Shown here: in pieces, positions 1-50,086 of the stretch
How the letters are laid out: each line of letters begins with the position of its first letter
Position numbering within the stretch: position 1 is the first letter of the stretch
Source of the DNA: Smithella sp.
GTDB taxonomy: Bacteria; Desulfobacterota; Syntrophia; Syntrophales; Smithellaceae
Assembly (NCBI GenBank): GCA_012797505.1
Contig: JAAZOZ010000159.1
Location: 1-56,109 of the forward strand
DNA: 56,109 nucleotides
Reading direction: 5' to 3'
Made by a program: the position numbers and the translations under genes
Notes under the pieces: model-generated
The model's database searches: none
What the model was told of the DNA's origin: nothing
Seen by the model: the letters and a program-made list of their open reading frames with translations, nothing else

Positions 1-633
1 CATTTCGTCCAGTTCGAACCGCAGATCGCGCAGTTCTTCGGGCCGCCAGGAAAATCCATCCACGACTTCGTCGTTGGAGAGCAGTTGCAGGTGAACTTTC
101 AGGCCGACGTCGCGAATGCGCCGGATGACCGGCTCGGTTTTTCCCACCTGTCTGGGCGTCAGGGTGTAAAGATAGTAGGCGCAAGGGTCGCCTTCATAGT
201 TTTTGCTGGAGACGGCAAAGGTATCCCTGCCGCGCAGGATCTTTTCCTCTTCGCCGCTGCCCCACAGGGAAATACCCACCATCATGCCGGGAAAACGGTC
301 GCGGGGAACCTTGATGAGGCCGTTGGTCGCGCAATACGTCGGAACACGCCGGTAAAAGGCCTCCAGGCGGTCCATGCAAAGCGTCGGCTCTCCGCCGATG
401 AGAATCGCCAGATTCACGCCGCGGGCTTTTTCCCGGTCAATGAAGGCCTCCCACCTGCAGAGTTCCATTTCTTCCTGAACGCGGTTCTCTCCCGAGGAAA
501 AGAAAAAACACCCCTTGCAGCGCAGATTGCACCGGCAGGTGAGATCGTAAATCGAGCTGCGAATGTTGAGGCTGGAGATCCGCCGGTAGCGTTCGCGCCA
601 GACGGAATCCAAAAGTGCGCTGACCGTTTTCAT
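1..633 (-). CDS. radical SAM protein, N-terminal part only (ORF open at left window edge; absent from supplied ORF track)
   Basis: Own translation from ATG 633-631: MKTVSALLDSVWRERYRRISSLNIRSSIYDLTCRCNLRCKGCFFF... No stop codon down to base 1. CNLRCKGC fits CxxxCxxC. Shares GGEPT/ATNGL-type motifs with the adjacent 680-1759 protein. Confidence 0.75.
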   Translation of the reverse strand, partial: MKTVSALLDSVWRERYRRISSLNIRSSIYDLTCRCNLRCKGCFFFSSGENRVQEEMELCRWEAFIDREKARGVNLAILIGGEPTLCMDRLEAFYRRVPTYCATNGLIKVPRDRFPGMMVGISLWGSGEEEKILRGRDTFAVSSKNYEGDPCAYYLYTLTPRQVGKTEPVIRRIRDVGLKVHLQLLSNDEVVDGFSWRPEELRDLRFELDEM

Positions 634-679
634 TCGTCAGGGTCTTTTCCCTTCCCATTCCCGAGGCACGCCGCAAAGG

Positions 680-1759
680 CTAACCGGCGGCCGCTCGCGG
701 AGGATGGATGATCTTGTTGCAGAGGTTCTCGCCTTTTTCGTACCCCATGGCCCAGACCGCCAGGTACGTATCCACGTAGTCCAGCCAGGAGGCAAAGGTA
801 TCCGGGTCGCCCGCGTGGCGGTAGAGCCTTGCCGTCACGACGGCGGAGCCGGCGGCGTAATGGCGGCAGTCTGCGCAGTCCGTATCCGGCACGCAGCAGG
901 CCGCCGACCGGTCCCAGTTCAAATCCGTCCGGTACTGGCGAAAAGAGCGCCCCAATCCAATGTCCTGCGAGGGATTGCAGCGGGGATACGAACAGCGGTA
1001 AAGATCATTGAGCCCGCGATCGCTCGTATGCGCAACGGCGTTATAGGCGGAAAAGAGCACCTGCGCCGGATATCGTGACAAAAGCGCCATCATCGTTTCC
1101 CTGGTTTTCAAAAGCGATTCCGCATTGTGGCGCAGGGGACCGGCATATCCGACCGGAGAGGAAAAAACATTAAATGTCATCTTGCAGCCGGCGGCGACCA
1201 GCTCCGCGGCAACATCCCGGGCTTCGCCGATGTTGTCGCGCGTAAACGTATACACAAAAACCGCGCGTGGATCGTTTCGGTAATTTTCAATCTGCTTTTT
1301 CAGGAGATTTTTGGCGCTGCGCGTTTTGAAGCTCGTCGCGTCGTTGCCCCAGACGGAAATATGAATCTTGTAGCCGACCGTTGCCGGTATTTTTTTTAAA
1401 CCATTGGTGGCAATGCAACCCAGCGGCATTTCGGCATAGCACACGGCAAGCAGATCCGGCGCCAGCGAGGGCTCCGCACCCGCCAGCACTACATAGGTGA
1501 TACCGCGGGCCTTTTCCGCCCGCATCAGGCTTCGCCAGTCTTCGGGGGAACAATTCTCCGCGGCAAAGGGCTTGTCCCCTTCGTAATAATAGCAGCCGTC
1601 GCAGCGGATGTTGCAGCGGTTGGTCATGTCGTAGGTGGATTCCCGCAGAAAGAAATACCTGCGCACCTTTTCCCAGCGCGCCCGGACCTCCGGGCGGGCC
1701 AGCAGGTCTTTAAATTTCGTCTGGTCTGATCGAACGGTTTTCGGACGGTTCATGGTCAT
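680..1759 (-). CDS. radical SAM protein with Cys-rich C-terminal (SPASM/twitch-like?) region
   Basis: 359 aa. DMTNRCNIRCDGCYYY (CxxxCxxC). C-terminal CCVPDTDCADCRHY. Paralog of the partial ORF at 1-633. Confidence 0.85.
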   Translation of the reverse strand: MTMNRPKTVRSDQTKFKDLLARPEVRARWEKVRRYFFLRESTYDMTNRCNIRCDGCYYYEGDKPFAAENCSPEDWRSLMRAEKARGITYVVLAGAEPSLAPDLLAVCYAEMPLGCIATNGLKKIPATVGYKIHISVWGNDATSFKTRSAKNLLKKQIENYRNDPRAVFVYTFTRDNIGEARDVAAELVAAGCKMTFNVFSSPVGYAGPLRHNAESLLKTRETMMALLSRYPAQVLFSAYNAVAHTSDRGLNDLYRCSYPRCNPSQDIGLGRSFRQYRTDLNWDRSAACCVPDTDCADCRHYAAGSAVVTARLYRHAGDPDTFASWLDYVDTYLAVWAMGYEKGENLCNKIIHPPRAAAG

Positions 1760-1780
1760 GGAGATCTTTGTCTTTTGCCT

Positions 1781-2071
1781 TCAATGCCGGGGAGCGATCT
1801 TTTCTTCAATATATTCACAAATCAACCGGACGGTTTTCAATTTTGGATAATCGTCTTCGTCGATGACAATTTTGTATTCATCCTGCAACACCAGCGCGAT
1901 CGTTGCCAGATCCATGCTGTCGATGCCCAGTTCATCCACCAGGTCCATCTCCGGATTGAAGGTGTCCGGCGTCACGTCTTCCAGTTTAAGCTCGTCGATA
2001 ATGATTTCGGCCACACGCCGCACAATGGCCTTCAGTGCGCTGTTTTCAGGCATTCCAGCCTCCTTTTTCAT
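1781..2071 (-). CDS. acyl carrier protein
   Basis: 96 aa, acidic. DELGIDSMDLATIAL phosphopantetheine-Ser motif. Start overlaps the upstream hotdog gene stop (ATGA at 2068-2071). Confidence 0.8.
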   Translation of the reverse strand: MKKEAGMPENSALKAIVRRVAEIIIDELKLEDVTPDTFNPEMDLVDELGIDSMDLATIALVLQDEYKIVIDEDDYPKLKTVRLICEYIEEKIAPRH

Positions 2072-2442
2072 TCCTGTGCTTTTGCCACCGTCATCAGTCC
2101 GCTGCAGACCATGTTTCCCCGAACCGTCACTTTAAAGTGAAACAGGATTTCGCCGTTCTGCACCTCCCGGGCAAGGATCAGAGCCATTTTTTCTCCCGGA
2201 CGGACCGGCCCGGTAAACCTTACTCTTTTCAAAGAAGAGATTTTGAGGGACTCTCCCCGGTGGGATGCATCCTTCAAAACCGCTTCATAGACGGTGCTGA
2301 TGAGAGCAATTCCCGGCAGGATCGGTTCCCCCGGAAAATGACCTTTAAACCAAACGGAATTTTCCGGCACGTCGGCCTTGGCTTCGATGCCGTCCAGCGC
2401 AGTCCACTGGACATCTTTGAGCAATTTCCATCGATCGGTCAA
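2068..2442 (-). CDS. hotdog-fold (FabZ/FabA-like) acyl-ACP dehydratase
   Basis: 124 aa. FKGHFPGEPILPGIALIS matches the FabZ-type HFPxxPxxPG motif. Confidence 0.7.
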   Translation of the reverse strand: MTDRWKLLKDVQWTALDGIEAKADVPENSVWFKGHFPGEPILPGIALISTVYEAVLKDASHRGESLKISSLKRVRFTGPVRPGEKMALILAREVQNGEILFHFKVTVRGNMVCSGLMTVAKAQE

Positions 2443-2572
2443 AATCCTTTCCTTTCCCCGTTGATTCGTTTACGCCCGAATAAAGGATGAGTTCTATATC
2501 ACTTATTATTTATTCAATCAAAAATTTTTTCAGCAGGCGAATACAAAAAGAATTTCAATCAAAGACAAGCCG

Positions 2573-3379
2573 TTACAACGATTTCAGCCTCATGATGTCC
2601 CGGCCCGCCAGCTCGGCGAGCGGCACAATCTTCAGCCCTCTGGCCCTGATGCCCGCCAGAATTTTTTCCATTTCGTTCCATAAAACGTCAGGATCATCAG
2701 AGCCCTGCCGCGGCCGGTCATGCAAAAGGACGATGTCGTCTCCTTTTATTTTTTGAAGAATCCTGCCCGAAAGATTCCGAATGCGCCGGTTCCCCGCGTC
2801 CCGCGCCCGGCAACTGAAGGTGACGCAAAACAATCCCTCCGCCTTCAGAATGGGAAAAAGCTTCGGATTGACAATGCCGACCGGCGGGCGGAAGGCCAGG
2901 GCATCGATTCCCATTTTTCGCAAAACCTCCCCGGCTTCCACAACTTCGCGCTGCAGCGTGCGGCTCCCCTTCAGCATCAGGAAAGGATCATGACTCATGG
3001 AATGATTGCCGATCGTGTGACCGCGCCGGATCAACTCGCGAATCAGATTTGGACAGCGCGCGGCGTTGACACCGGACACGAAGAAAGTGGCTTTCGCGTC
3101 GTGACGGTCCAGCAGGGCAAGAATCTTTTCCGTTGTGGCTTCGAAAGGGCCGTCATCAAAAGTGAGGGCGACAACATTTTTTCCCGTTCGTCCCCGGTGG
3201 ATGACCGGCCCCAGAAAATTGGTTTGAGGGAAAAAGCAGGATGCCACGCACACACCCACATACAAAGACAACACCGCGGCCGAAAGCAGTGGATGAACAA
3301 AAAAAACCGCAGCCGCGGAGATCAAAACCGTTCCCCCTGTAATCAGGACGGGGCTTAGCCGTTTTTTCCCGTCTTCCAT
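2573..3379 (-). CDS. membrane-anchored polysaccharide deacetylase (NodB homology domain)
   Basis: 268 aa. N-terminal hydrophobic helices, LTFDDGP and IGNHSMSH motifs. Confidence 0.8.
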   Translation of the reverse strand: MEDGKKRLSPVLITGGTVLISAAAVFFVHPLLSAAVLSLYVGVCVASCFFPQTNFLGPVIHRGRTGKNVVALTFDDGPFEATTEKILALLDRHDAKATFFVSGVNAARCPNLIRELIRRGHTIGNHSMSHDPFLMLKGSRTLQREVVEAGEVLRKMGIDALAFRPPVGIVNPKLFPILKAEGLFCVTFSCRARDAGNRRIRNLSGRILQKIKGDDIVLLHDRPRQGSDDPDVLWNEMEKILAGIRARGLKIVPLAELAGRDIMRLKSL

Positions 3380-3532
3380 GAAAAGTCTCTCCGGGTAAGC
3401 CGTTTAGAAACAGCGTGACAACGGCTTGAGTCACCTGACCACTCAACCACCTAACCGCCTAAAGGTGGCGCGAGGTCACGCGATGTGGTACGAGGTCAAC
3501 CAGCCCTTCCCCGCGAAAAAGCCGGACCGATG

Positions 3533-4885
3533 CTATGCGATGAGATATTCCCACAACGGACCCGTATGCCCGCGCTCGTAGAGTCTGGGCAGGATGCGCG
3601 TCGCCTTGCCCTCCCCAGCCCCGATCAGCCAGTTGATCCTTCCGGCGGCATGCGTTTCAACGATCCGGATGATTTCAGGGCCGGACAGAAAAGGCGAGCG
3701 GTAAAAAATCGGATCCATCAGATTCTGCGAGGCCTGAATCTGTCCTTCGCGCAAAGCCGTCTCGTACAGCGCCGTGTGTGGGTAAATGCGAATACCGCAG
3801 AAAAAGAAAAAAACCGCCCGGTTCAGCCGATCGACACCCTCCAGGGTCTCCCGCAGGGTCTCCCGGTTTTCGTCGGGGCCACCCAGCAAAAAATAGTGGG
3901 CGATGTGGAGGCCGGCCTTTTCAGCCTGCCGGTGGGCCTCAAAGACATCGGCGGCGGCAAAAGGCTTCCTGAAATTCGACAGCATCGTGTCGCAAAGCGA
4001 CTCCGTGCCGAATTCCACGTGCGAAAGACCGGCATCCGCCAGTTGTTGAAAATAACCTTCCGGGGGAACGGTGGGAGCAAAAAATCCTCCCCAGGGAACG
4101 GTGACGCCCCGGTCCTTGAAAGCCCGGGCAACCTGAAGGCTGTGTTCGTAACTGGCGTTGAATGCGGAATCGGTCACAAAAATATATTTGGCGCCGGCGT
4201 CCTGCAGCCGACGGGCCTGATGGGCGACCTCCCGCGGGTCCAGCAGCCGCATTTTGCCGCCTTCAATGTGGGGATAGGTGCAGTAACTGCATCGAAACGG
4301 GCATCCCCGTTTGGTCTGCAAATTCAGCATGCCGCCATACGAGATATAAAATTTTGTGTATTCGGCATCGGGATCAAAGACCCGGTGCAGCTCTCCCTTC
4401 CAGGGGAGATAGCGAACGGACGAAGTTTCAGAGGTAATCACCCCCGGAATAGAGGCCGCGTTCCCCTTCTGTTCCAGCGTATCGAGGAGCAACGAAAGCC
4501 TCTCCCCTTCTCCGGCAACGCCGAAATCCGCGCCGAGCGCCCGGAAAAATTCGAGGGGAAACACCGTGTAGCCGCTCCCGCCCAGAATGAGCGGCGCCTT
4601 CGATTGCATCCGGATAATGCCGATCATGTCCTGATAGTCGGAAAGGAAACCGCGGGGGCTCATCAGGTCCGTGTTGTCGATATTGCGTATTGAAAATCCG
4701 ATGTAGTCCGGTTCGTACTCCCGGACCTGCACCCCCAGCATATCCAGAGACGGACAAAAATTCATATCCAGAATTTTCGTTTGATAACGGGGCTTCAGGG
4801 CGCCCGCTACATAGTCAAGCCCCAGCGGATACACCGGATAGGGCTTCTTCATCCTGTTGGCGGAAATCAGCAATACTTTCTTCAT
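3533..4885 (-). CDS. B12-binding-domain (class B) radical SAM protein
   Basis: 450 aa. N-terminal KVLLISANR...PLGLDYVAGAL (B12-binding-like). KRGCPFRCSYCTYP radical-SAM cluster motif. Confidence 0.85.
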   Translation of the reverse strand: MKKVLLISANRMKKPYPVYPLGLDYVAGALKPRYQTKILDMNFCPSLDMLGVQVREYEPDYIGFSIRNIDNTDLMSPRGFLSDYQDMIGIIRMQSKAPLILGGSGYTVFPLEFFRALGADFGVAGEGERLSLLLDTLEQKGNAASIPGVITSETSSVRYLPWKGELHRVFDPDAEYTKFYISYGGMLNLQTKRGCPFRCSYCTYPHIEGGKMRLLDPREVAHQARRLQDAGAKYIFVTDSAFNASYEHSLQVARAFKDRGVTVPWGGFFAPTVPPEGYFQQLADAGLSHVEFGTESLCDTMLSNFRKPFAAADVFEAHRQAEKAGLHIAHYFLLGGPDENRETLRETLEGVDRLNRAVFFFFCGIRIYPHTALYETALREGQIQASQNLMDPIFYRSPFLSGPEIIRIVETHAAGRINWLIGAGEGKATRILPRLYERGHTGPLWEYLIA

Positions 4886-4943
4886 GAAACCATTCTGCTT
4901 TGGATCGTTGGAAGATCAGGGCCGTTTCCAGCCCCGGCAGGAA

Positions 4944-5216
4944 TCAGGCTCTGGAGGCTCTGACCTGGAGAATGAAGGTCGCCAGTGTGCGGACCGAAGC
5001 AAATACCTTGGCGCCCAGTTCCTTGCTGTCAATTTTAACGCCGTAATCCTTTTCAATCATCATCACCAGCTCCAGCACATCGATGGAATCAATGCCCGTC
5101 TCGCCGCCGACCAACGGATCATCATCCTTTATGTCCTCGGGGGTTACGTCCAGCAACCCCAGCGTTGCAATGATTTTGCCCTTCAGGTCTTTGATGGTTT
5201 CTTCTACCGTGCTCAT
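4944..5216 (-). CDS. acyl carrier protein (second copy)
   Basis: 90 aa. GETGIDSIDVLELVMMIE Ser motif. Confidence 0.8.
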   Translation of the reverse strand: MSTVEETIKDLKGKIIATLGLLDVTPEDIKDDDPLVGGETGIDSIDVLELVMMIEKDYGVKIDSKELGAKVFASVRTLATFILQVRASRA

Positions 5217-5357
5217 GCGTCACCTCAATCGATTAATGAAAACTTCTCCCGGCATCCCGCCGGGCATCCTAAATCCGCCTCGAAGGGATCGGATGAAGTC
5301 CCCCCCCGCTGAAGCCGAAAGCAGCGGCCCTTGCGCCCGCTGCCGGAGCTTTGTGCC

Positions 5358-5780
5358 TCAAGCGCTTCCACCTCCCGGGCAGTTGTCCGAATCCGTCCCT
5401 GCAAAAGACGGGTGATCCTTCCCCAGAATCTTTTCCAGCACAACCCTGGTCAACCAGCGGGAAAACACCTGGAAATATTTTTTTCCCGCCATCTTGATTC
5501 CGATAATGAACACAATGGTGGAAACGGCATATATCAGCGGTCCTCCGACGACCAGTACCAGCGGCTCCTTGATCCAGACCGCGATGACGCCCATGGCCAC
5601 AACCGCCGGCAAACCGATGGCATAACTGAACGCGATCAGGCCGAGGCCAACGAGAATTTTAGGCGTCGGTTTTTCCTTGATGGCCGACAAATCGGCTCTT
5701 TCCAAAATCGCCGATCTGCAATATTCTTTGCGGGCAAAATAAAGGGCCGTTTTTTTGAGAATGCTCAAAACCAGTCTCAA
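5358..5780 (-). CDS. small integral membrane protein, unknown function
   Basis: 140 aa with two or three long hydrophobic segments (ILVGLGLIAFSYAIGLPAVVAMGVIAVWI; LVLVVGGPLIYAVSTIVFIIGI). No family recognised. Confidence 0.5.
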   Translation of the reverse strand: MRLVLSILKKTALYFARKEYCRSAILERADLSAIKEKPTPKILVGLGLIAFSYAIGLPAVVAMGVIAVWIKEPLVLVVGGPLIYAVSTIVFIIGIKMAGKKYFQVFSRWLTRVVLEKILGKDHPSFAGTDSDNCPGGGSA

Positions 5781-5862
5781 CCACGCAGCTTAATTAAAAA
5801 CGTGGGGATCATATCTGGAATCGGGAAAGTTTTGCAATAGTTTTTTGGCCTTCAGAAATTTC

Positions 5863-5892
5863 TTGGCATAAAAGGGCAAATTCGGCTATAAG
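5863..5892 (+). promoter_or_regulatory. possible sigma70 promoter for the flavin-reductase/rubredoxin gene
   Basis: TTGGCA (5863-5868), 18-nt spacer, TATAAG (5887-5892), about 40 nt upstream of ATG 5932. Confidence 0.3.
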
Positions 5893-5931
5893 AACGTATT
5901 ATTAACTCATCCGGAAAAGAGGAAAGAAAAT

Positions 5932-6627
5932 ATGAACAGAGCAGCCCTTCACCAGATCAGTTACGGCGTCTATATTGTCACCTCAGGCAAAGACGGCACC
6001 TTCAACGGTCAGATCGCCAACTCCATTGTCCAAGTTACCTCCAAACCCGCCACCCTGGCCATCTGCATCAATAAAGAAAACTACACACACGCCTTGATAC
6101 GGAAAAGCGGAAAATTTGTCGTTTCCATCCTGTCGGAGGCCGCTCCGATGACCTTCATCGGACTTTTCGGCTTTAAAAGCGGACGCGACGTCGATAAGTT
6201 AAAAGACGTCAAAAGCAGGATCGGCGCCACCGGCGTGCCGATCGTTCTGGATTATTCCCTGGGATTTGCCGAGGCCGAAGTGGAAGGCGAACTGGACGGC
6301 GGAACGCACACGATTTTCCTGGGCAAAGTTGTCGAGGCGGATCTGGTGGGGGAAGGCACACCAATGACATACGCCTATTATCAGAACGTCAAGGGCGGCA
6401 AATCCCCCAAATCCGCTCCGACATTTGATGCGGACGCGGCCGTTGCCAAACCCAAAATTCAGGCCGCCGCCCGCTATGTGTGCAGCATCTGCGGTTATGT
6501 CTATGACCCCGCCGAGGGCGATCCAGAAAACGGCATCGCTCGGGGCACCCGATTCGAAGACATTCCCGACGCCTGGACCTGCCCGGTTTGCGGCGCGGAG
6601 AAAAAAATGTTTGAAGTGGATAAGTAA
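5932..6627 (+). CDS. hrb: flavin reductase domain fused to C-terminal rubredoxin (high-molecular-weight rubredoxin type)
   Basis: 231 aa. N-terminal flavin-reductase-like domain. C-terminal [10 protein letters not shown]...WTCPVCG rubredoxin motif. Confidence 0.8.
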
Positions 6628-23827: not shown

Positions 23828-26800
23828 GTGGTAAAAGATAACGAAAAAGTTGGTGCAGTAATGGTGGTCGGCGCGGGTATCGCCGGCATTCAGGCCTCTC
23901 TCGATCTGGCCAATTCAGGAATGAAAGTTTATCTGGTGGAAAGCGGGATCAGCATCGGCGGCGTCATGGCCCAGCTGGACAAAACCTTCCCCACAAATGA
24001 CTGTTCTGCCTGTATTCTGTCTCCGAAGCTGGTTGAAGTCGGACGCCATCCGAATGTAACGATCAAAACAAGGCGCACGGTAGAAGCCGTGGAAGGCGAG
24101 CCGGGAAAATTCAAGGTCAAACTCACCTCCGCCCCCCGGTACATCAACCTGGACAAATGCACGGGCTGCGGCGATTGCGCCAAAGTCTGCCCCATCACGG
24201 TCAAAGCGGAATTCAACGGCAATTTAAGCGAAAGAAAGGCCGTCTATCGGCACTTCCCGCAGGCCATTCCCAGCGGCTTCGCGATCGACAAACTGGGCAC
24301 TTCGCCCTGTAAGGCCCACTGCCCGACGCATATCAGCGTTCAGGGATATGTGGCGCTGATCGCCGAAGGCAAATTCAAGGAAGCCCTCAAGCTGATCAAG
24401 CAGGACAACCCGTTCCCCATCGTCTGCGGACGCGTCTGCAACCATCCCTGCGAATCCGCCTGTATGCGCGGCAAGGTGGATGAACCGATCGACATTATGC
24501 ACCTGAAGCGCTTTGTCGCGGATCTGGATTTAAACAGCGACACGCGCTATCTGCCGGAAAAGAAGGAAAGCAAGGGCAAGAAAGTTGCCGTGGTCGGCGC
24601 CGGCCCCTCGGGCCTCACCTGCGCGTACTACCTGGCCATTGAAGGCTACGATGTGGAAGTTTTTGAAGCCCTGCCGGTGGCGGGCGGCTGGATGGCCGTC
24701 GGCATTCCCGAATACCGCCTCCCCAAGAACGTCCTGAACGCGGAAATCAAGGTCATTCAGGATCTGGGCGTCAAAATCCACCTCAACACCCGCATCGGCA
24801 AAGACATTTCCTTCGACAAACTCAAAAGCGATTACAGCGCGGTATTCATCGGCTGCGGCACAATGAAGAGCAGCAAACTCAATATCCCCGGCGAAGACAT
24901 GCAGGGCGTGGTTCACGGGGTGGATTACCTGATGAAGATCAACCTCGGTGAAAAAGTCGCGCTCGGCGACCGGGTGGCGGTCATCGGCGGCGGCAACGTC
25001 GCGATGGACGCGGTCCGCACGGCGGTGCGCACCGGCTCAAAGAATGTTTTCATTCTGTATCGCCGAACCCGCGCTGAAATGCCCGCTTCTCCCGAGGAAA
25101 TCGAAGAAGCGCTGGAAGAAGGAATTGAAATGAAATTCCTCGTTGCCCCCAAGCGCGTGGTGGGCAAGGATGGAAAAGTCACGGGCGTCGAATGCACGCG
25201 CATGGAACTGGGCGAGCCGGACAAGAGCGGCCGCCGCCGTCCCATTGAAATCAAAGGCTCCGAATTTATTGTGGAATGTGACGCCATCGTTCCGGCCATC
25301 GGCCAGGAAGCGGATCTCTCCTTCATCACCAAGGAAAGTGGCGTTTCCATCAATAAGTGGAACAACCTGGATTACGACGCCGTGACCTACGCCACCAATG
25401 TTGCGGGCGTTTTCACCGGCGGCGACGTTTCCACCGGTCCGCAGACGGTCGTCAAGGCCGTTTATTCCGGAAAGGAAGCGGCGAAGTCGATCGATCGTTA
25501 TCTGCAGGGTCAGGATATGAAGGCCGGTCGCGAAAAAGACTGGACCAAAGACCTGGCGGACAAAGCGGATCTCTCCAACGTTCCCAAAGTTCCCCGGGAA
25601 AAATATCCGAACATGAAACCGGAAGAGCGCCGCACCAGCTTCCAGGAAGTCGGCATCGGCTTCTCCGAGGCCCAGGCGATTGCGGAAGCGCATCGCTGCC
25701 TGGCCTGCGGCATCTGCTCCGAATGTTATCAGTGCGTCGAGGCCTGTATTGCCAAGGCCATCGATCACGATATGAAAGTGGAAGAAGAAACGATTGAAGT
25801 CGGCGCCGTGATTGCGTCGGCCGGCTTTGAAATCTTCGACGCCGGCAAACGCGGTGAATACGGCTACGGCATTTACAAGAACGTCGTCACGGCCCTGCAG
25901 TTTGAGCGCATCCTGTCCGCGTCCGGTCCTTTCTTCGGCCACGTGCAGAGAATTTCCGACGGCAAGGAACCCAAAAAGGTCGCCTTCATTCAGTGCGTCG
26001 GCTCCCGCGATGTTTCCTGCGGCAACAGTTGGTGCTCGTCGGTCTGCTGTATGTACGCCACGAAAGAGGCGATCATCGGCAAGGAACACGCCAAGGGGCT
26101 GGAGCCCACGATTTTCTACATGGACATCCGCGCCCACGGCAAGGATTTCGACCGGTTCGTGAACCGCGCCAAGGACGAATACGGCATCCGCTACATCCGC
26201 TCCATGCCGTCCGCCATCAAGGAATTGCAGCAGTCCAACAACCTGCTGATCAAATACACCAACCCCGACGGCAGCTTCACGGAAGAAGAATTCGACATGG
26301 TGGTTCTGTCGGTCGGTTTGATGCCGCCCAAAGAAGCCAAAAAGCTTTCCGCCAGCCTGGGCATTGAGCTGGAAGAGCACGGCTTCTGCAAGACGGCCCT
26401 GGACAATCCCGTTCAGACGTCGCGCCCCGGCGTGTTTGTCTGCGGCGCTTTCGGCGGCCCGAAGGACATTCCGGAAACCGTCATGGAAGCCTCGGCGGCG
26501 GCGGCCTGCGCGGAGGGGCTGCTGGCCTCCAAGCGCGGCACCATGATTACGCCGGTGGAAAATCCGGAAGAAAAAGATATGCGCGGCCAGGGCGTTCGCA
26601 CCGGCGTGTTTGTCTGCCACTGCGGCATCAACATCGGCGGCGTGGTGAACGTTCCCGAAGTCCGCGACTACGCGGCGACGCTGCCGACGGTCGTTTATGC
26701 GGCGGACAACCTCTTTACCTGCTCGCAGGACACGGCCGTGAAGATGGCGGAAGTGATCAAGGAAAAGGATCTGACCCGCGTGGTGGTGGCTTCCTGTTCG

Positions 26801-28258
26801 CCCCGGACGCACGAAGGGCTTTTCCAGGAAAACTGCGAGAAAGCCGGGCTGAATCGTTATTTGTTCGAGATGGCCAATATCCGCGACCAGAACTCCTGGG
26901 TGCATATGCACGAACCGGAGAAAGCAACGGAGAAAGCCAAAGATCTGCTGCGCATGGCGGTCGCCAAGGCCCAGTATCTGAAGCCGTTGAAACCGGGGCA
27001 GTTGTCCGTCAACCATCAGGCGTTGATTATCGGCGGCGGACTGGCCGGCATGACGGCGGCCCTGTCGCTGGCCGATCAGGGGTTTGCTTCCACGATCGTT
27101 GAAAAGGAAGACCGCCTCGGCGGCAATTACAATCACCTGTACAAAACGCTGGAAGGCCTGGACGCCCAGGCGCACCTGAAAGGGCTTCATGAAAAAGTTT
27201 ACAAGAATCCTTTGATCACGGTCGTCACCGGCGCCGCCATTGAAAAGATTGAAGGGTTTATCGGCAATTACAAAACCACCGTCAAGTCCAAGGAAGGCGA
27301 GAAAGTTTTCGAACACGGCGTGGTGCTCGTCGCCACCGGCGCGTATGAAAACAAGCCCAAAGAGTACCTCTACGGGGAAAACGCCAAAGTGAAAAGCCAA
27401 AGAGAGCTGGAGAAGATGATCTATGAAAAGGATCCGAAACTGGCCTCTGTGAAAAATATCGTCATGATTCAGTGCGTGGGCAGCCGCGATAAGGAAAGAC
27501 CGTATTGCAGCCGCTACTGCTGCGGAGAGGCGATCAAAAACGCGCTGGAACTCAAAGCCGCCGATCCGTCGCGTGACATTACGATCCTTTATCGCGATAT
27601 CCGCACGTTTGCTTTCAAGGAAGACTATTACAAGAAAGCCCGCGAAGCGAATATCAAATTCATCTCCTATGAAGAAAACCGCAAGCCGGAAGTGGCGGCC
27701 GCCGGAGATAAAGTGGAAGTCAAAGTGCTTGATCCGATTCTCAACGAAACGGTCAGCCTGCCGGCCGATGTGGTGGCCTTGAGCATCGGCGTGGTGCCGA
27801 ATCCGGAAAATGCGGCCATCGGTCAGATGCTGAAAATTCCCACGAACCAGGACGGCTTCTTCCTGGAAGCGCACGTCAAGCTGCGCCCGGTGGATTTCGC
27901 GACCGACGGCGTGTTCATGTGCGGCATGTCGCATTCGCCCAAGTACAGCGACGAAACCGTTACATCAGCCAACGCCGCCGTTTCACGCGCCTGCCTGGTC
28001 TTGAGCCTTGATTTCATCGAGGCGGAAGGCAAAACGGCTTATGTGAACAAAGAACGCTGCTCGGCCTGCGGACTTTGCGAAATCAACTGCCCCTACAGCG
28101 CGATTCGCGTGAATCCCGCCGAAGGGTGCGCCGAAGTCAACGCGGTTCTGTGCAAGGGCTGCGGCGTTTGCACGGCCTCCTGCCGCATGAACGCGGTGGA
28201 TTTGAACGGTTTCAACAACGAAGAAGTGCTGGCGCAGATTTATAACATCAACAATTAA
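23828..28258 (+). CDS. hdrL: giant HdrA-family fusion: HdrA core with inserted GltD/NfnB-type NAD(P)H domain, followed by a second complete HdrA module (HdrL-like)
   Basis: 1476 aa. N-terminal [16 protein letters not shown]...[14 protein letters not shown]. Then [13 protein letters not shown] and [17 protein letters not shown] (GltD-like). Then [12 protein letters not shown]...[11 protein letters not shown] and [13 protein letters not shown] (second HdrA). C-terminal 2x CxxCxxCxxxCP. Confidence 0.85.
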
Positions 28259-40878: not shown

Positions 40879-41059
40879 CCGTCGCGACTGCCCTCCGCGG
40901 GACGCAAATCCCGGATTTGGGACGGGCCGGAAGCCGTCCGTCCGAAAGCGGCGCCGGGGGCTTTTCGCAGAGGGTCGCGCATGCTTCAACACCTTTTTAT
41001 GATTGATTTTTTGCATGGATTGCATTAACGTGCGCCGACTATTTTCAAAGGAACAGCAA

Positions 41060-43243
41060 ATGCATTATACGGTTCAACCACTGCAGCAGGGATACGCCAA
41101 TCAGATCCTTTCCATCAACGTAACGACCGGCAAGATGGAGGTCCGTCCTCTTCCTCCCGAAGTTCGAAATTTCTTTATCGGCGGAAGGGGTCTGGGGCTT
41201 TATCTGCTGCATGAGCAAGTGACTTCCCGGACCAAAGCCTCTGATCCGGAAAATCCCCTGATTTTCTCACCGGGGCCGCTGGGCGGCATTCCGCAGTTTC
41301 CCGGAACGAGCAAGTGCATGGCGATTTCGCTGTCGCCCCTGACCGGCATTCCCGGTGTCTCCAATTTTGGAGGCCATTTTGGCGCTTATCTGAAATATGC
41401 CGGGTTTGACGCGCTGACAGTCGCGGGAATCGCCCCTGAACCGGTCATGATCGTCATTGACGGTTTCCGGCGGGAAATCTCCATCGTCGGTGTTTCCGGA
41501 GACGATCAGGTTTTTCATCTTGAGAAGACGCTGGTGGACCGGTTTTTGCGCGAGGGCCATGAAAAAAAGGACCTGGCCTTTTTGACGACCGGCATCGGAG
41601 CGGAGCATACGTCTTTCGGTTGCATCAACAGCCATTACTATGACGCCACGAAGCCGGTGGAAGGCGGCAAAGGCCTCTTCCGCACCAAACAGGCCGGCCG
41701 CACGGGCCTGGGATCCGTGATGAGCCAAAAGCTTGTTACGGCCATTGTTGTTCTGGCCGCTTTTCCCCGCGGTGAAAACCCTTACGGAGCGGCCGACTGG
41801 AACAGAGTCAAAGAGGCGGGGGCGAAGCTGCACGGGGTTGTGCGGGACGTCGATCCGCAGGCGCTGAAAATGCATCTCAAAGGGTCGGCCGGTCTGATCT
41901 CTTTTATGAACAAGGAAGAATACCAGTCCCTGCCGGTCCATAATTATCAGCGCGGGTCACACCCTCGGGCGGGTGAAATCTGCGGCAAAGTTTACGCCGA
42001 GCGGCTGTTTGAGCATCGCGGGATGGACGGGTGCTTTCCGGGCTGCAATCTGCGCTGCACCAAGGGCGGCTGGGTCATGCTGACGTCGGGCGAGCATACC
42101 GGGCGAAGAGTCTGGGTGGACGGCCCCGAGTATGAAACCGCCGCCGGTTTCGGCTCGAATCTGGGCATGTGGCATCCCGAATTTGTCATGGAAGCCAACT
42201 GGCACTGCGACAATTACGGCATCGATACCATTACTACGGCGGTCATCATGGCGTTTGTCATGGAATGCTGCCAGCGCGGCTACCTGACGAAGGAAGACAC
42301 GGACGGCTTTTGTCTGACGTGGGGGGATGAGCAGGCGGCGCTGCAGTTCATCCATGACCTGGCGTATCGCCGGACCGACTTGGCCCGCGCCGCCGCCCTG
42401 GGCATGGTGGGCCTGACCGACTGGGTCTCTCTAAAGTACGCTTTGCGAACCGGCAAAGCGAAACCGCTCGAAGAGCTGCAGACGTTTGCCATGCAGACCA
42501 AAGGCCTTCCTTTCTCCCTGTATCGCACGCACCGGTCGCTTTCCATGCAGGCCTCCTACGCGGCGGCCAGCGACATCGGCGCGCATCATGCCGCCGCCTG
42601 GCTGGTCAAGGTGGATCTGCTGGGCGCCTTTCCCACGTTTGAATCCAAGGCCAGAGCGCTGATCACCTATCCCCGTGTGCGCCTGGGCAACGACAATCTG
42701 GGCCTGTGCAAGCTGCCCTGGGTGGATGTTTTAAATCCCGATTCCATGAAGGAAAACCATACCGACATCTACATCAATCCGGCGTCGCAGGAGCTTTATG
42801 CGGATTTTTACAACGGCATGCTGGGGACGGAACTGACCTGGGAACAGATCTTCGAGCAGACGGACCGGGACATCAACCTCCAGCGTGTGCTGAATGTGCT
42901 GTCGTTCGGGGCAACGACCGGGGAACGCGACTGGATTCCCGACCGGGCCATCGGGCCTACGGAGGACACGCTCTATGAACTGGAAAAAGAATACAATGAC
43001 CGGCAGCTGAGCGAGATTCTGCAGTGGCCTCTGCCGGAAATTCAGCAGATGCCCACGGGCGAAAAGCGCGCCGCGCTGATGCGGCATCGAAAAGAGGATC
43101 TGCGTCAGTTGATTCTTGTGTATTACCGTGAGCGGGGCTGGACGGATGCGGGTGTCCCGAAGGTGGAGACGCTCCAGCAAATCGGTTTATGGCGTTTTCT
43201 GACGGACGAAGCCAGGGCTATCATTACCCGCCTGAACGGGTAA
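41060..43243 (+). CDS. aldehyde:ferredoxin oxidoreductase (AOR) family tungsto/molybdopterin enzyme, divergent and long
   Basis: 727 aa from ATG 41060. GGRGLGLYLL, DGPEYETAAGFGSNLG, DNLGLCKL, C-terminal YYRERGW. Cluster motif GCFPGCNLRC. Confidence 0.85.
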   Translation: MHYTVQPLQQGYANQILSINVTTGKMEVRPLPPEVRNFFIGGRGLGLYLLHEQVTSRTKASDPENPLIFSPGPLGGIPQFPGTSKCMAISLSPLTGIPGVSNFGGHFGAYLKYAGFDALTVAGIAPEPVMIVIDGFRREISIVGVSGDDQVFHLEKTLVDRFLREGHEKKDLAFLTTGIGAEHTSFGCINSHYYDATKPVEGGKGLFRTKQAGRTGLGSVMSQKLVTAIVVLAAFPRGENPYGAADWNRVKEAGAKLHGVVRDVDPQALKMHLKGSAGLISFMNKEEYQSLPVHNYQRGSHPRAGEICGKVYAERLFEHRGMDGCFPGCNLRCTKGGWVMLTSGEHTGRRVWVDGPEYETAAGFGSNLGMWHPEFVMEANWHCDNYGIDTITTAVIMAFVMECCQRGYLTKEDTDGFCLTWGDEQAALQFIHDLAYRRTDLARAAALGMVGLTDWVSLKYALRTGKAKPLEELQTFAMQTKGLPFSLYRTHRSLSMQASYAAASDIGAHHAAAWLVKVDLLGAFPTFESKARALITYPRVRLGNDNLGLCKLPWVDVLNPDSMKENHTDIYINPASQELYADFYNGMLGTELTWEQIFEQTDRDINLQRVLNVLSFGATTGERDWIPDRAIGPTEDTLYELEKEYNDRQLSEILQWPLPEIQQMPTGEKRAALMRHRKEDLRQLILVYYRERGWTDAGVPKVETLQQIGLWRFLTDEARAIITRLNG

Positions 43244-48121: not shown

Positions 48122-48282
48122 CAAGACGCCCATGAGCAAATCTTCCGCCTCTGACAAAACGCTGTCCTCGAATTGACCGATGCCGACAGTCCGCCGTTCT
48201 TCCCTGATTGCTTCCGGCATCTCCCCCGCTGAATGATCGGCGACGGAAAAACATGGACAACCTCAAGTAAGGAAGGCGTTTG

Positions 48283-50073
48283 ATGAAAAATTCCCTTGAG
48301 CTCGGCCTGATCGGCAACTGCCGCATCGGCGCTTTGATTGATGAGCGCGGTGAAATCGTCTGGAGCTGTCTGCCCCGGTTCGACGGAGATCCGGTTTTCT
48401 GCTCTCTGCTGCGCGAACATGCCGACGGCGAAGGGTCCGGCTATTGCGTGGTGGAGCTGATCGATCAGGTGGAGGCCGCCCAGTTCTATCTGCCCAACAC
48501 GGCCATCCTGGTGACCCGCCTGACGGATCGGCACGGCGCGTCCATCGAAATCACGGATTTTGCCCCCCGTTTTCATCAGTACGGCCGGACGTTCATGCCG
48601 ATGATGATGATTCGCCAGATCCGGCGTATTCACGGAACGCCGCGCATTTGCGTGCGCGTTCGCCCCGTGTGCGAATACGGAGGCCAGAGCTGCACCGTCA
48701 CCCACGGCAGTCATCACATCCGCTACGTCGCACCGTCCTGGATCTTACGCCTGACCACCGACATCTCCGTGACCGCCGTGCTTCAGGAAATCCCCTTTTT
48801 CCTGGAAACCGCCGCCACGATGATTCTGGGGCCGGATGAAACCATTCCGGACGCCATCGGCGATCTTTCACGCCGTTTTCTGGACGAAACGGTCGGCAGC
48901 TGGCGCAACTGGGTCAGAGACCTTTCCATTCCCTTCGAGTGGCAGGAAGAGGTGATTCGCGCCGCCATTACCCTGAAGCTGAACACGTTTCAGGATACGG
49001 GCGCCATCATCGCGGCCATGACGACATCGATTCCGGAGGCGCCGGATTCGGGCCGCAACTGGGACTATCGCTACTGCTGGCTGAGAGATTCCTACTTTGT
49101 CGTCAACGCCCTGAACCGCCTCAGCACGACCAATACGATGGAACGGTATTTGAATTACCTGATCAATGTGGCGGCGGGAACGCCCAACGGCCGGATTCAG
49201 CCCGTGTACGGCATTGACGGCAGGGCCAAGCTGGACGAGCGGGACGTCGATAGCCTTCCCGGTTATCGGGGAATGGGGCCCGTCCGGATCGGCAACCAGG
49301 CCTGCGAACAGATCCAGCATGATGTTTACGGATCGGCCATCCTCGCCGTGGCGCACACCTTCTTTGACCGCAGACTTGCCCACCGGGGAGGAGCGGCTCT
49401 CTTCTCGCGGCTGGAACCCCTGGGGGAAGCAGCCATGGCGGTTCATGACCAGCCGGATTCGGGTCCCTGGGAAACACGCAACACCCTGCGGGTTCACACG
49501 TTTTCCAGCCTGATGTGCTGGGCGGCCTGCGACCGTCTGGCCCGCATCGCCGTTTATATCGGCCTTTCCGAACGCGCTGCCTGCTGGCAAAGCCGGGCGG
49601 AACGGATTCATGCCACCATCTGCCGCCGTGCGTGGAATGAAAAAAAGCAGTCTTTCGTCGGCGCATTTGACGGAGATTCGCTGGATGCCAGCCTTCTGCT
49701 GCTCCACGACATCGGGTTTCTGTCCGACGATGATCCTCGTTTTGTCCGGACGGTGGCCGCGGTTGAACGGGAGCTCCGGCGCGGCGATTATATTTACCGC
49801 TATGTGGAGACGGATGATTTCGGCGTTCCCCAAAACGCTTTTGTGGTCTGCACCTTCTGGTATATTTACGCGCTGGCTGCCCTGAACCGCGGCGAAGAAG
49901 CCCGCGCGCTGTTTGAAAACCTCCTGTCCCGCCGAAGCCGCCACGGGCTTCTGGCCGAGCACATCGATCCGCGCACGGGAGATCCCTGGGGGAATTTTGT
50001 TCAGACCTACAGCATGGTGGGCCTGATCAACTCCGCCATCCGCCTCAGCAGGCGCTGGGACAGTGCGTTTTAG
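48283..50073 (+). CDS. glycoside hydrolase family 15 (glucoamylase/trehalase-like)
   Basis: 596 aa. GH15-type (alpha/alpha)6 region (NWDYRYCWLRDS, GPWE, FTFWYIYAL-like CTFWYIYAL). Confidence 0.85.
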   Translation: MKNSLELGLIGNCRIGALIDERGEIVWSCLPRFDGDPVFCSLLREHADGEGSGYCVVELIDQVEAAQFYLPNTAILVTRLTDRHGASIEITDFAPRFHQYGRTFMPMMMIRQIRRIHGTPRICVRVRPVCEYGGQSCTVTHGSHHIRYVAPSWILRLTTDISVTAVLQEIPFFLETAATMILGPDETIPDAIGDLSRRFLDETVGSWRNWVRDLSIPFEWQEEVIRAAITLKLNTFQDTGAIIAAMTTSIPEAPDSGRNWDYRYCWLRDSYFVVNALNRLSTTNTMERYLNYLINVAAGTPNGRIQPVYGIDGRAKLDERDVDSLPGYRGMGPVRIGNQACEQIQHDVYGSAILAVAHTFFDRRLAHRGGAALFSRLEPLGEAAMAVHDQPDSGPWETRNTLRVHTFSSLMCWAACDRLARIAVYIGLSERAACWQSRAERIHATICRRAWNEKKQSFVGAFDGDSLDASLLLLHDIGFLSDDDPRFVRTVAAVERELRRGDYIYRYVETDDFGVPQNAFVVCTFWYIYALAALNRGEEARALFENLLSRRSRHGLLAEHIDPRTGDPWGNFVQTYSMVGLINSAIRLSRRWDSAF

Positions 50074-50086
50074 AAGAGGGGGGCGG

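Follow-up and report, generated by a model that had tools for sequence, protein, structure and literature searches.

A candidate lipid-chain tailoring cassette with two acyl carrier proteins and three radical SAM enzymes in Smithella

What do two acyl carrier proteins (ACPs), three radical S-adenosylmethionine (SAM) enzymes (rSAMs), a small hotdog protein, a NodB-type deacetylase and a small membrane protein make together when no ketosynthase (KS) is encoded beside them? The question arises from the minus strand at positions 1-5780 of a 56 kb stretch of Smithella sp. (Smithellaceae, Syntrophales) DNA, the whole of which is called the window here. An earlier note on this DNA had proposed a lipid or acyl-sugar tailoring pathway, and the lipid-type locus with ACPs and three rSAMs is supported. 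With a probability of roughly 0.7 the eight genes are an ACP-based lipid-chain tailoring module of a ladderane-like cluster family. In our best reading, the cassette and a divergent gene for a flavin reductase-rubredoxin fusion (5932-6627) are 'module 1' of a conserved two-module lipid cluster of the ladderane-like/aryl-polyene-like type II fatty acid synthase/polyketide synthase (FAS/PKS) kind. Ladderane-type clusters with radical SAM enzymes have been known from comparative genomics since 2006-2009, and genome-mining tools flag them in many anaerobic phyla. We know of no radical SAM enzyme from such clusters with a known reaction.

Conserved gene order and a second module

One genome per species was scanned with an alignment of the B12-rSAM, the B12-binding radical SAM enzyme of the cassette. 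At least 574 relatives were found and the best 80 loci were analysed; the number of evaluable loci differs by gene (68, 63 or 49 of 80) and gives the denominators of the counts below. The order memb-ACP1-B12rSAM-NodB-hotdog-ACP2-rSAM_A-rSAM_B is kept almost everywhere (about 60 of the 63 evaluable species genomes). Because dozens of species genomes have this order, the gene arrangement is far beyond chance. The earlier note had made its proposal depend on synteny in other genomes, and this was found; its label 'orphan' has to be dropped, the cassette being syntenic in at least 60 species genomes. The features are as follows, with the loci in which each was found.

5358-5780, minus strand: memb, small membrane protein of 136-140 aa with two to three transmembrane helices, first gene of the unit; 56 of 68 loci, upstream, and behind PlsY in the variants L032 and L076
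4944-5216, minus strand: ACP1, 90 aa, serine in GIDSID, 58 nt ahead of the B12-rSAM gene; 65 of 68 loci
3533-4885, minus strand: B12-rSAM, 450 aa, class-B (B12-binding) radical SAM enzyme with CX3CX2C at C195/C199/C202
2573-3379, minus strand: NodB/CE4 deacetylase, 268 aa, N-terminal two-helix membrane hairpin; 57 of 63 loci, absent in Desulfobacterales-type variants
2068-2442, minus strand: hotdog, 124 aa, small dehydratase-like protein, FabZ/ApeI-like; 61 of 63 loci
1781-2053, minus strand: ACP2, 90 aa from an ATG at 2053 preceded by a Shine-Dalgarno sequence (the longest open reading frame, ORF, starts at 2071); 60 of 63 loci
680-1759, minus strand: rSAM_A, 359 aa, radical SAM core and C-terminal Cys motif of the auxiliary-cluster type; 60 of 63 loci
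<1-633, minus strand: rSAM_B, small radical SAM protein, N-terminal 211 of 331 aa in the window, frame open to base 1; 60 of 63 loci
5781-5931, no strand: intergenic, divergent region between the cassette and the flavin reductase-rubredoxin gene
5932-6627, plus strand: flavin reductase-rubredoxin fusion, 231 aa, divergent (PF01613 120.8 bits, PF00301 84.4 bits)

ORF listing and translation gave eight co-directional minus-strand genes with all frames intact, and the coordinates and domains that had been read from the sequence were borne out by the listing and by Pfam. The Pfam searches returned PF00550 twice, PF02310 with PF04055, PF01522 and PF07977/PF22818; the two small rSAMs reached the PF04055 cutoff or fell just short of it. 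The leftmost gene, rSAM_B, indeed has no stop codon in the window. Its full length of 331 aa was taken from contig L001, a 99.9%-identical longer metagenome contig that extends the cassette past the left edge of the window.

In 39-45 of the 49 evaluable loci (about 90%) the cassette is followed by genes for two KSs, a thioesterase (TE), a dehydratase (PS-DH) and PlsY: KS1 in 45/49, KS2 in 44/49, TE in 43/49, PS-DH in 42/49 and PlsY in 39/49. A FabA gene is located just upstream in 43 of 68 loci. The KS pair is FabF-like and both members keep the Cys-His-His triad in Smithellaceae relatives. The linked TE is of the YbgC/FadM type (TIGR00051, 72.8 bits vs 68.7). PS-DH is a PKS-type dehydratase, fused in some loci to a phosphopantetheinyl transferase (PPTase). 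The PlsY paralogue is a divergent glycerol-3-phosphate acyltransferase (PF02660, 124.8 bits), and FabA is a true member of its family (NF003509, 197 bits vs cutoff 124). The earlier note had seen no ketosynthase, acyltransferase or glycosyltransferase. This is true in the 56 kb window, in which tblastn found no KS, acyltransferase, ketoreductase (KR) or glycosyltransferase genes and in which DH and PlsY genes of the module-2 type are also absent; it does not describe the cluster, which in most relatives continues into KS-KS-TE-DH-PlsY. The apparent want of condensing and transferring enzymes arises because the window ends there and because an insertion sequence (IS)-associated break follows the conserved hairpin after rSAM_B.

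In the nearest relatives the palindrome after rSAM_B is separated from the KS genes by an SPFH/band-7 gene and a gene (full or truncated) for a P-type cation ATPase, both on the opposite strand (L108, 6112-9700; L088, 5841-7040; L007, 15382-16188). These genes split the cluster into two transcription units. Some contigs carry the KS module alone. Because of this split and of the stand-alone KS modules, it was concluded that the cluster consists of two separable modules and that the window carries module 1. The unusual genes thus form a tight, separable and strongly conserved eight-gene module.

Several variants were found. In those of the Desulfobacterales type, NodB and memb are replaced, a fusion of KS and chain length factor (CLF) lies between ACP1 and the B12-rSAM, and FabG and a LolA-like gene are added; the KS-CLF fusion scores best against the provisional family NF006618. 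Variants in Spirochaetes have an extra phytoene-desaturase-like gene, and one from a delta-proteobacterium has extra genes for a tyrosine ammonia-lyase (TAL)-like protein, an AMP-ligase and a FakA-DegV fatty-acid kinase fusion. In a related Smithellaceae metagenome contig (L097, 3254-3474), residues 1-28 of the B12-rSAM are fused to residues ~384-449, with about 355 codons deleted; the other cassette genes and KS-KS-TE-DH-PlsY are intact. Either the deletion is a natural variant or it arose in the assembly. Across the loci ACP2, the hotdog and the rSAM pair are the invariant parts; NodB and sometimes the B12 enzyme are dispensable.

The radical SAM enzymes and their partner proteins

The B12-rSAM matches TIGR04072 (rSAM_ladder_B12, lipid biosynthesis B12-binding/radical SAM protein) with 379.6 bits vs a curated cutoff of 360, residues 3-449 being aligned to model positions 1-442. 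Eight relatives from other loci score 374-411 bits. The next-best NCBIfam model is BzaD (141.6 bits). PF02310 (45 bits) and PF04055 (73 bits) were detected, and C195/C199/C202 are invariant in the alignment; 5583 homologues were found at E<=1e-20. The genomic context that goes with TIGR04072 is also present, with ACPs and hotdog flanking the gene in the window and KS, KS, TE, DH, PlsY and FabA linked in relatives. Among solved structures, TsrM (6wte) and AprD4 (6fd2) are nearest in sequence. Assignment to BzaD, HpnJ/HpnR/HpnP, BchE or PhpK was rejected (31-142 bits vs cutoffs 450-650).

The suggested resemblance to anammox ladderane-candidate clusters thus has a family match behind it, and the gene content mirrors the Kuenenia and Desulfotalea clusters (PMC2649909, PMC4790861). 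That Smithellaceae make genuine ladderane (fused cyclobutane) lipids with the cluster has, in our estimate, next to no chance of being right, in spite of the TIGR04072 match and the gene content in common with the anammox candidate clusters (PMC2649909). Ladderane lipids have been reported only in anammox bacteria (PMC9902471), that is, in anammox Planctomycetota, and Desulfotalea, which has a syntenic cluster, is without ladderanes (PMC2649909, PMC9902471). At the window locus there is no likeness to amxFabZ/amxACP, no KS with an inactive CLF-like partner and no phytoene-desaturase homologue.

The paralogues rSAM_A and rSAM_B align over 305 aa with 28.5% identity (E=4e-34), and the claim of two tandem paralogous rSAMs with Cys-rich C-termini stands. 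Each contains CX3CX2C, 100% conserved (C49/C53/C56 in rSAM_A, C35/C39/C42 in rSAM_B), and about seven more conserved Cys, including CC-x5/6-C-x2-C near the C-terminus (C256, CC288/289, C295 and C298 in rSAM_A). The PF04055 score is 29.7 bits for rSAM_A (cutoff 29.5) and 26.6 bits, just under the cutoff, for rSAM_B, whose window copy is truncated. The pair is the most conserved part of the cassette, with 67-93% identity across three phyla (73-93% for rSAM_B) compared to ~55% for the B12-rSAM and ~40% for the hotdog. rSAM_A found no specific NCBIfam match and has no curated model; its relatives are named 'radical SAM protein' or 'hypothetical' in databases. The family is very small, with 475 of 1.84 billion cluster representatives at E<=1e-3. 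An AF2 model of rSAM_A (pLDDT 90.2) gave SkfB, SuiB, viperin, BlsE and anSME as the best Foldseek matches (TM ~0.5, 13-18% identity). These matches of a predicted structure appear to be generic radical SAM folds, from which function is not transferable. The small rSAMs gave no match to the SPASM domain of Pfam (PF13186); their seven extra conserved Cys include CCx5CxxC and their nearest folds are SPASM/twitch enzymes (TM ~0.5).

Three other assignments were rejected. For the maturation of ribosomally synthesized and post-translationally modified peptides (RiPPs), no precursor, protease or exporter gene is present, the ACPs are genuine, and RiPP rSAM families score 15-30 bits via the cluster-binding motif only. 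The PADLOC core matches to anti-phage defence (prokaryotic viperin-like) reach only 23-27 bits. The tetraether/membrane-spanning lipid synthase Tes/Mss (Tes, NF045702) matches with ~22 bits over the cluster-binding N-terminus only.

A 40%-identical rSAM_A relative was found in a capsule/glycan-type cluster with GT47, GT61, sulfotransferases, WcbI and an epimerase (L111, 8824-11255). The stop codon of its gene is overlapped by the gene for an 86-aa ACP. Here an rSAM_A-family protein and an ACP are paired independently for a second time, outside lipid clusters, which supports action of the family on ACP-bound substrates. In a profile search, distant rSAM_A members were found mainly in Alphaproteobacteria, Desulfamplus and Turneriella, with no anammox names among the named matches. 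Relatives of rSAM_A/B with about 30% identity occur in aerobic marine Alphaproteobacteria beside a 537-aa B12-binding rSAM and a cytochrome P450 (Marinicauda algicola, L109, 6549-10776), and in a Desulfamplus metagenome-assembled genome (MAG) between two other large rSAMs and a lipid-A-type acyltransferase (L110, 4877-10869). The signature of the wider rSAM_A/B family is CCxP(N/D)xDCxxC.

Both ACPs were judged by PF00550, a four-helix carrier with the phosphopantetheinylation serine in DSx(D/L). ACP1 scores 40.1 bits and ACP2 39.9 bits, with the serine in GIDSMD in ACP2; by these motifs they are taken as genuine PP-binding proteins. The best NCBIfam match of ACP1 is NF006617, 60 bits and below its cutoff. 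The hotdog protein matches PF07977 (40.6 bits) and, above the cutoff, the ApeI-like PF22818 (30.5 bits). NCBIfam FabZ models give 42-48 bits vs cutoffs of 113-155. Its His motif is GHFPGEPILPG (GHFPGxPILPG in the family), in which the His is invariant. Its best match in the PDB is FabZ 6n3p (42.9 bits); amxFabZ (8AYD/8AYB) reached 25-28 bits, and neither ACP matches amxACP (7QV0; for ACP1 the threshold was E<=0.01).

The ApeI-like score raises the possibility that the cluster makes an aryl-polyene-like or other polyene secondary metabolite (an envelope pigment or protective lipid), the rSAMs tailoring polyenoyl-ACP. ACP1 and the KS-CLF fusion of the variants score best against the provisional models NF006617 and NF006618, some variants carry a TAL-like lyase, AMP-ligase, LolA-like protein, FabG and phytoene-desaturase-like protein, and 'ladderane' calls of the antiSMASH type are made in non-anammox phyla (PMC9902471). 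The Smithellaceae version encodes neither a lyase nor a CoA-ligase, and LolA, an exporter and a methyltransferase are missing as well; its linked FabA is a true one, and PlsY, the YbgC thioesterase and, in one variant, FakA-DegV point to phospholipid acylation. To our knowledge there are no radical SAM enzymes in characterised aryl-polyene (APE) clusters, which also counts against a polyene product. We consider such a product unlikely and prefer lipid-chain tailoring.

NodB scores 98 bits with PF01522, and its best PDB matches are chitin and peptidoglycan deacetylases. The membrane anchor noted before was confirmed as two N-terminal hydrophobic helices. NodB carries the CE4 motifs TFDDGP, HSMSH (HSxxH), FRPPVG and LLHD, none of which varies in 63 homologues. 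In CE4 enzymes TFDD, H(S/T)xxH, RxPxG and LxH form the Asp-His-His metal site and the catalytic base and acid. A membrane-anchored deacetylase with intact-looking catalytic motifs in the middle of the operon would suit a glycolipid or acyl-sugar pathway, in which NodB would remove the acetyl group from a GlcNAc-type head group and the ACPs would then supply its N-acyl chain, by analogy to Nod factor and lipid A. The rSAM_A relative and ACP in the glycan-type cluster are in line with this pathway, as is the Kuenenia cluster with its glycosyltransferase and deacetylase-like gene (PMC4790861). The 80 loci analysed contain no linked gene for a glycosyltransferase, an N-acyltransferase or a sugar-nucleotide enzyme. 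Of the core genes NodB is retained least often (the Desulfobacterales-type variants are without it), and a nonsense variant exists: a G>A change at window position 3190 turns codon 64 from CGA to TGA in the metatranscriptome assembly of run X12, in which nothing else in the cassette is changed. Some strains seem, from this assembly, to carry an inactivated NodB. The acyl-sugar half of the earlier proposal is very improbable on these grounds; the lipid-chain reading gives NodB an accessory place.

The flavin reductase-rubredoxin gene is divergent and adjacent in 53 of 68 loci, and the next gene beyond it varies (32 families). The fusion protein could plausibly donate electrons to the three rSAMs.

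The operon end and the state of the cassette

A perfect 14-bp palindrome, GCAGGGAACGGTTT A AAACCGTTCCCTGC, is located seven bases past the rSAM_B stop codon (L001, 15255-15283), and homology with every close relative ends exactly there. Past the palindrome (L001, to 17696) are an IS4-type DDE transposase of about 525 aa and then a 272-aa C-terminal fragment of a penicillin-binding protein (PBP) transpeptidase, followed by a large PAS histidine kinase on the other strand. The operon here ends at the conserved hairpin and the KS-KS-TE-DH-PlsY module is not adjacent. The palindrome, the transposase and the PBP fragment together suggest that the site at the operon terminator is a hot spot for insertion and rearrangement. 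A metagenome scan with the KS of the nearest relative gave 22 loci, none of which shares window DNA beyond the cassette or carries the IS/PBP junction. FabA is absent upstream at the window locus, unlike in 43 of 68 relatives.

It may be asked whether the cassette is a stranded remnant, an IS-associated rearrangement having taken the KS/TE/PlsY half and left eight decaying genes with no product. The transposase and truncated PBP gene directly past the hairpin, the lack of KS, DH and PlsY in 56 kb, the missing FabA and the NodB nonsense codon in one population variant are what a remnant would show. Other observations speak against it. All eight frames are intact, and a near-identical contig is present in many samples: the B12-rSAM sequence was found in 166 index blocks of the assembly collection, and the window matches contigs from wastewater and digester metagenomes at 99.9% identity (its closest genomes are Smithella/Smithellaceae MAGs). 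The dN/dS values of the eight genes against three relatives are 0.08-0.35, lowest in the rSAM pair (0.08-0.13 for rSAM_B), so that the genes appear to be under purifying selection. Single-nucleotide polymorphisms (SNPs) in metatranscriptome contigs are mostly synonymous (16 synonymous, 9 non-synonymous and 4 intergenic). Contigs assembled from four independent RNA-seq runs span the whole unit at a depth like that of the neighbour genes; such contigs may contain DNA, carry no strand or operon structure and attest presence only. The nearest relatives already have split modules and some KS modules stand alone, so that module 2 may lie elsewhere. We give the remnant little credence and regard the cassette as a probably functional tailoring module. 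Among Smithellaceae, which are key syntrophs in anaerobic digesters and in consortia that degrade oil, the module is abundant, and it seems to be transcribed in situ.

The region 5781-5931 is the probable promoter region of both divergent units. A sigma-70-like site was found at 5837-5808 on the minus strand, the number of such sites being not above chance. In several RNA-seq runs, contigs stop at 5895 or start at 5899/5926, within this intergenic region. These contig ends (5895-5926) and the sigma-70-like site may mark the transcript boundaries of the two divergent units.

Two gene starts were looked at again. The gene caller places the start of memb at 5768 on an identical metagenome contig; this protein has no Pfam, NCBIfam or PADLOC match. 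The hotdog and ACP2 genes had been described as translationally coupled through an ATGA. The overlap exists at 2068-2071; the coupling is doubtful, and the overlap is probably an artefact of taking the longest ORF. Because a perfect AAGGAGG Shine-Dalgarno sequence lies 5 nt ahead of the ATG at 2053, and because the gene caller and homologues of 90-92 aa favour this start, ACP2 most likely starts 15 nt past the hotdog stop codon with no overlap.

Elsewhere in the window, a 1476-aa flavoprotein/Fe-S oxidoreductase with several Pyr_redox_2/FAD, DPD-type 4Fe-4S and ferredoxin domains is encoded at 23828-28258, with a low-GC stretch (~47-49%) ahead of it at 20-24 kb. An aldehyde:ferredoxin oxidoreductase gene is found at 41003-43243. 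Two trehalose-related genes, one GH15 glucoamylase/trehalase-like and the other for a GT20 trehalose-phosphate synthase fusion of 758 aa, form a pair at 48280-52339. Neither the aldehyde:ferredoxin oxidoreductase gene nor this pair is related to the lipid cassette. Rfam and tRNA scans of the window were empty.

A proposed pathway and comparison with known systems

A working scheme can be drawn up for the whole cluster. In this scheme ACP1 and ACP2 would hold a growing or finished acyl chain, possibly unsaturated or enoyl. The chain would be built by the FabF-like KS pair, FabA, the small hotdog and PS-DH, with housekeeping FabD/FabG/FabI filling the missing steps. The B12-rSAM beside ACP1 could carry out C-methylation or other cobalamin-assisted C-C chemistry or rearrangement on an unactivated carbon. 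The invariably paired rSAM_A/B, beside ACP2 and the small hotdog, would start chemistry on unactivated carbons by H-abstraction, possibly as a heterocomplex; auxiliary Fe-S-type cysteine motifs are predicted in both. The flavin reductase-rubredoxin would plausibly give reducing equivalents. In relatives the YbgC-type thioesterase would free the acid, which may be phosphorylated (FakA-DegV in one variant) and then loaded on glycerol-3-phosphate by the cluster PlsY. The outcome would be a membrane phospholipid with an unusual acyl chain. Membrane-anchored NodB may perform an accessory step. We infer the carrier, chain-building, tailoring and NodB steps; the release and PlsY step rests partly on observed sequence and synteny.

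Gene content points to PlsY-mediated entry into phospholipids, and we see an even chance that the product is a phospholipid acyl chain. More tentatively, the cassette and the flavin reductase-rubredoxin could be a self-contained radical tailoring engine that adds rings, methyl branches or cross-links to acyl chains carried by ACPs in anaerobic syntrophs and sulfate reducers and so leads to an undescribed class of membrane lipids, with rSAM_A/B as a new family of lipid-modifying radical SAM enzymes. Should this possibility be true, the cassette would be the simplest natural ladderane-type machinery and a first biochemical handle on the anammox enzymes. It is in any case a compact testable construct for unsolved lipid chemistry.

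Several observations weigh against the assignment to a ladderane-like tailoring module. At ~20 bits above the cutoff, the window clade is a peripheral branch of the TIGR04072 family. FabZ and FabA use a catalytic His in HFPxxPxxPG and an acidic partner, Glu (FabZ) or Asp (FabA); the hotdog position aligned to the FabZ catalytic Glu is a Ser, not conserved. The hotdog and the ACPs appear by sequence no closer to amxFabZ/amxACP than to ordinary FabZ/ACP. The NodB nonsense and B12-rSAM deletion variants show that not every part is indispensable. Linkage to the flavin reductase-rubredoxin is found only in the Smithellaceae type and is absent from non-Smithellaceae variants, and this protein resembles the 'high-molecular-weight rubredoxin' type known from operons for oxidative stress. 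For this organism the searches gave no KS/TE/PlsY partner, and the RNA evidence has the limits given above. The product and every chemical step are inferred, and no activity has been demonstrated for a radical SAM enzyme of the cluster family.

The nearest known systems are the candidate ladderane clusters of Kuenenia (kuste3335-3352, kuste2802-2805 and kuste3603-3608), which are syntenic in Desulfotalea psychrophila/Geobacter (PMC2649909, PMC4790861, PMC10139942). The Kuenenia and Desulfotalea clusters contain tandem rSAMs, two ACPs, FabZ, a deacetylase-like protein and a B12-rSAM (Rattray 2009, PMC2649909; Javidpour 2016, PMC4790861). Likened by gene content, our cluster has the same parts list as the anammox/Desulfotalea clusters: TIGR04072 B12-rSAM, tandem small rSAMs, two ACPs, FabZ-like and polysaccharide-deacetylase-like proteins, a membrane protein and several FabF homologues. 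Variants of the window family also share with the anammox clusters a PPTase, a phytoene-desaturase-like and an aryl-CoA-ligase-like protein. There are clear differences. The window type is compact and forms one operon, not three loci. Both KSs of the Smithellaceae pair have Cys-His-His, so there is no FabFmut/CLF partner, and SAM methylases are absent. PlsY, the YbgC thioesterase and FabA belong to the Smithellaceae type. Parts of the amxFabZ/amxACP type, as in anammox 'Cluster I' (kuste3603-3608), were not found (for the hotdog, 42.9 bits with FabZ 6n3p vs 25-28 bits with 8AYD/8AYB/7QV0), nor does the window contain the FabF2, catalytically dead FabFmut and phytoene-dehydrogenase (PDH) homologue of that cluster. 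Only the variants from Desulfobacterales and Spirochaetes have the KS-CLF fusion and a PDH-like gene.

Among ladderane-cluster enzymes only amxFabZ, amxACP and a FabF heterodimer have been characterised, and the radical SAM steps are unknown (PMC10139942, PMC13459092, bioRxiv 10.64898/2026.05.19.726425). Genome mining finds 'ladderane' clusters in Desulfobacterota and many other phyla, with the product not known (PMC9902471). Our search for literature on TIGR04072, or on such clusters characterised in Smithella/Desulfobacterota, found none. The earlier statement that no characterised pathway fits agrees with the literature up to 2026, which calls the function of the cluster unproven (PMC10139942, PMC13459092, PMC9902471) and any assignment hypothetical only. 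Annotators should be cautious, as 'ladderane' calls outside anammox bacteria denote a different product.

APE clusters are alike in their dissociated type II logic, two ACPs, ApeI-like hotdogs and KS/CLF, and some variants also share an aromatic ammonia-lyase, AMP-ligase, FabG and LolA-like protein. The window differs in having no starter-unit enzymes, exporter, methyltransferase or glycosyl/acyl-transferases. An APE cluster is expected to contain aryl starter activation (lyase/CoA ligase), KS-CLF, KR, two DHs, two ACPs and a LolA-like protein/exporter. The window holds only two ACPs and one ApeI-like hotdog of this set; the other elements were found only in the distant variants L032 and L079.

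At the level of single enzymes, the B12-rSAM resembles the class-B rSAMs TsrM, BzaD, PhpK and HpnR/HpnP (PMC13459092) in its N-terminal B12-binding Rossmann domain followed by the CX3CX2C core. It scores 57-142 bits vs family cutoffs of 450-650, and its substrate is presumably an ACP-bound acyl chain. rSAM_A/B share the partial TIM-barrel core and a Cys-rich C-terminal domain with the auxiliary-cluster rSAMs SkfB, SuiB, anSME and BlsE at TM ~0.5 and 13-18% identity. With the rSAMs that form C-C bonds in lipids (Tes/Mss, Jaw5), the likeness of rSAM_A/B is confined to the N-terminus (Tes NF045702, ~22 bits). The anammox and Desulfotalea clusters and the window cluster all come from strict anaerobes and are all biochemically unsolved; the locus is a member of this recognised kind of cluster.

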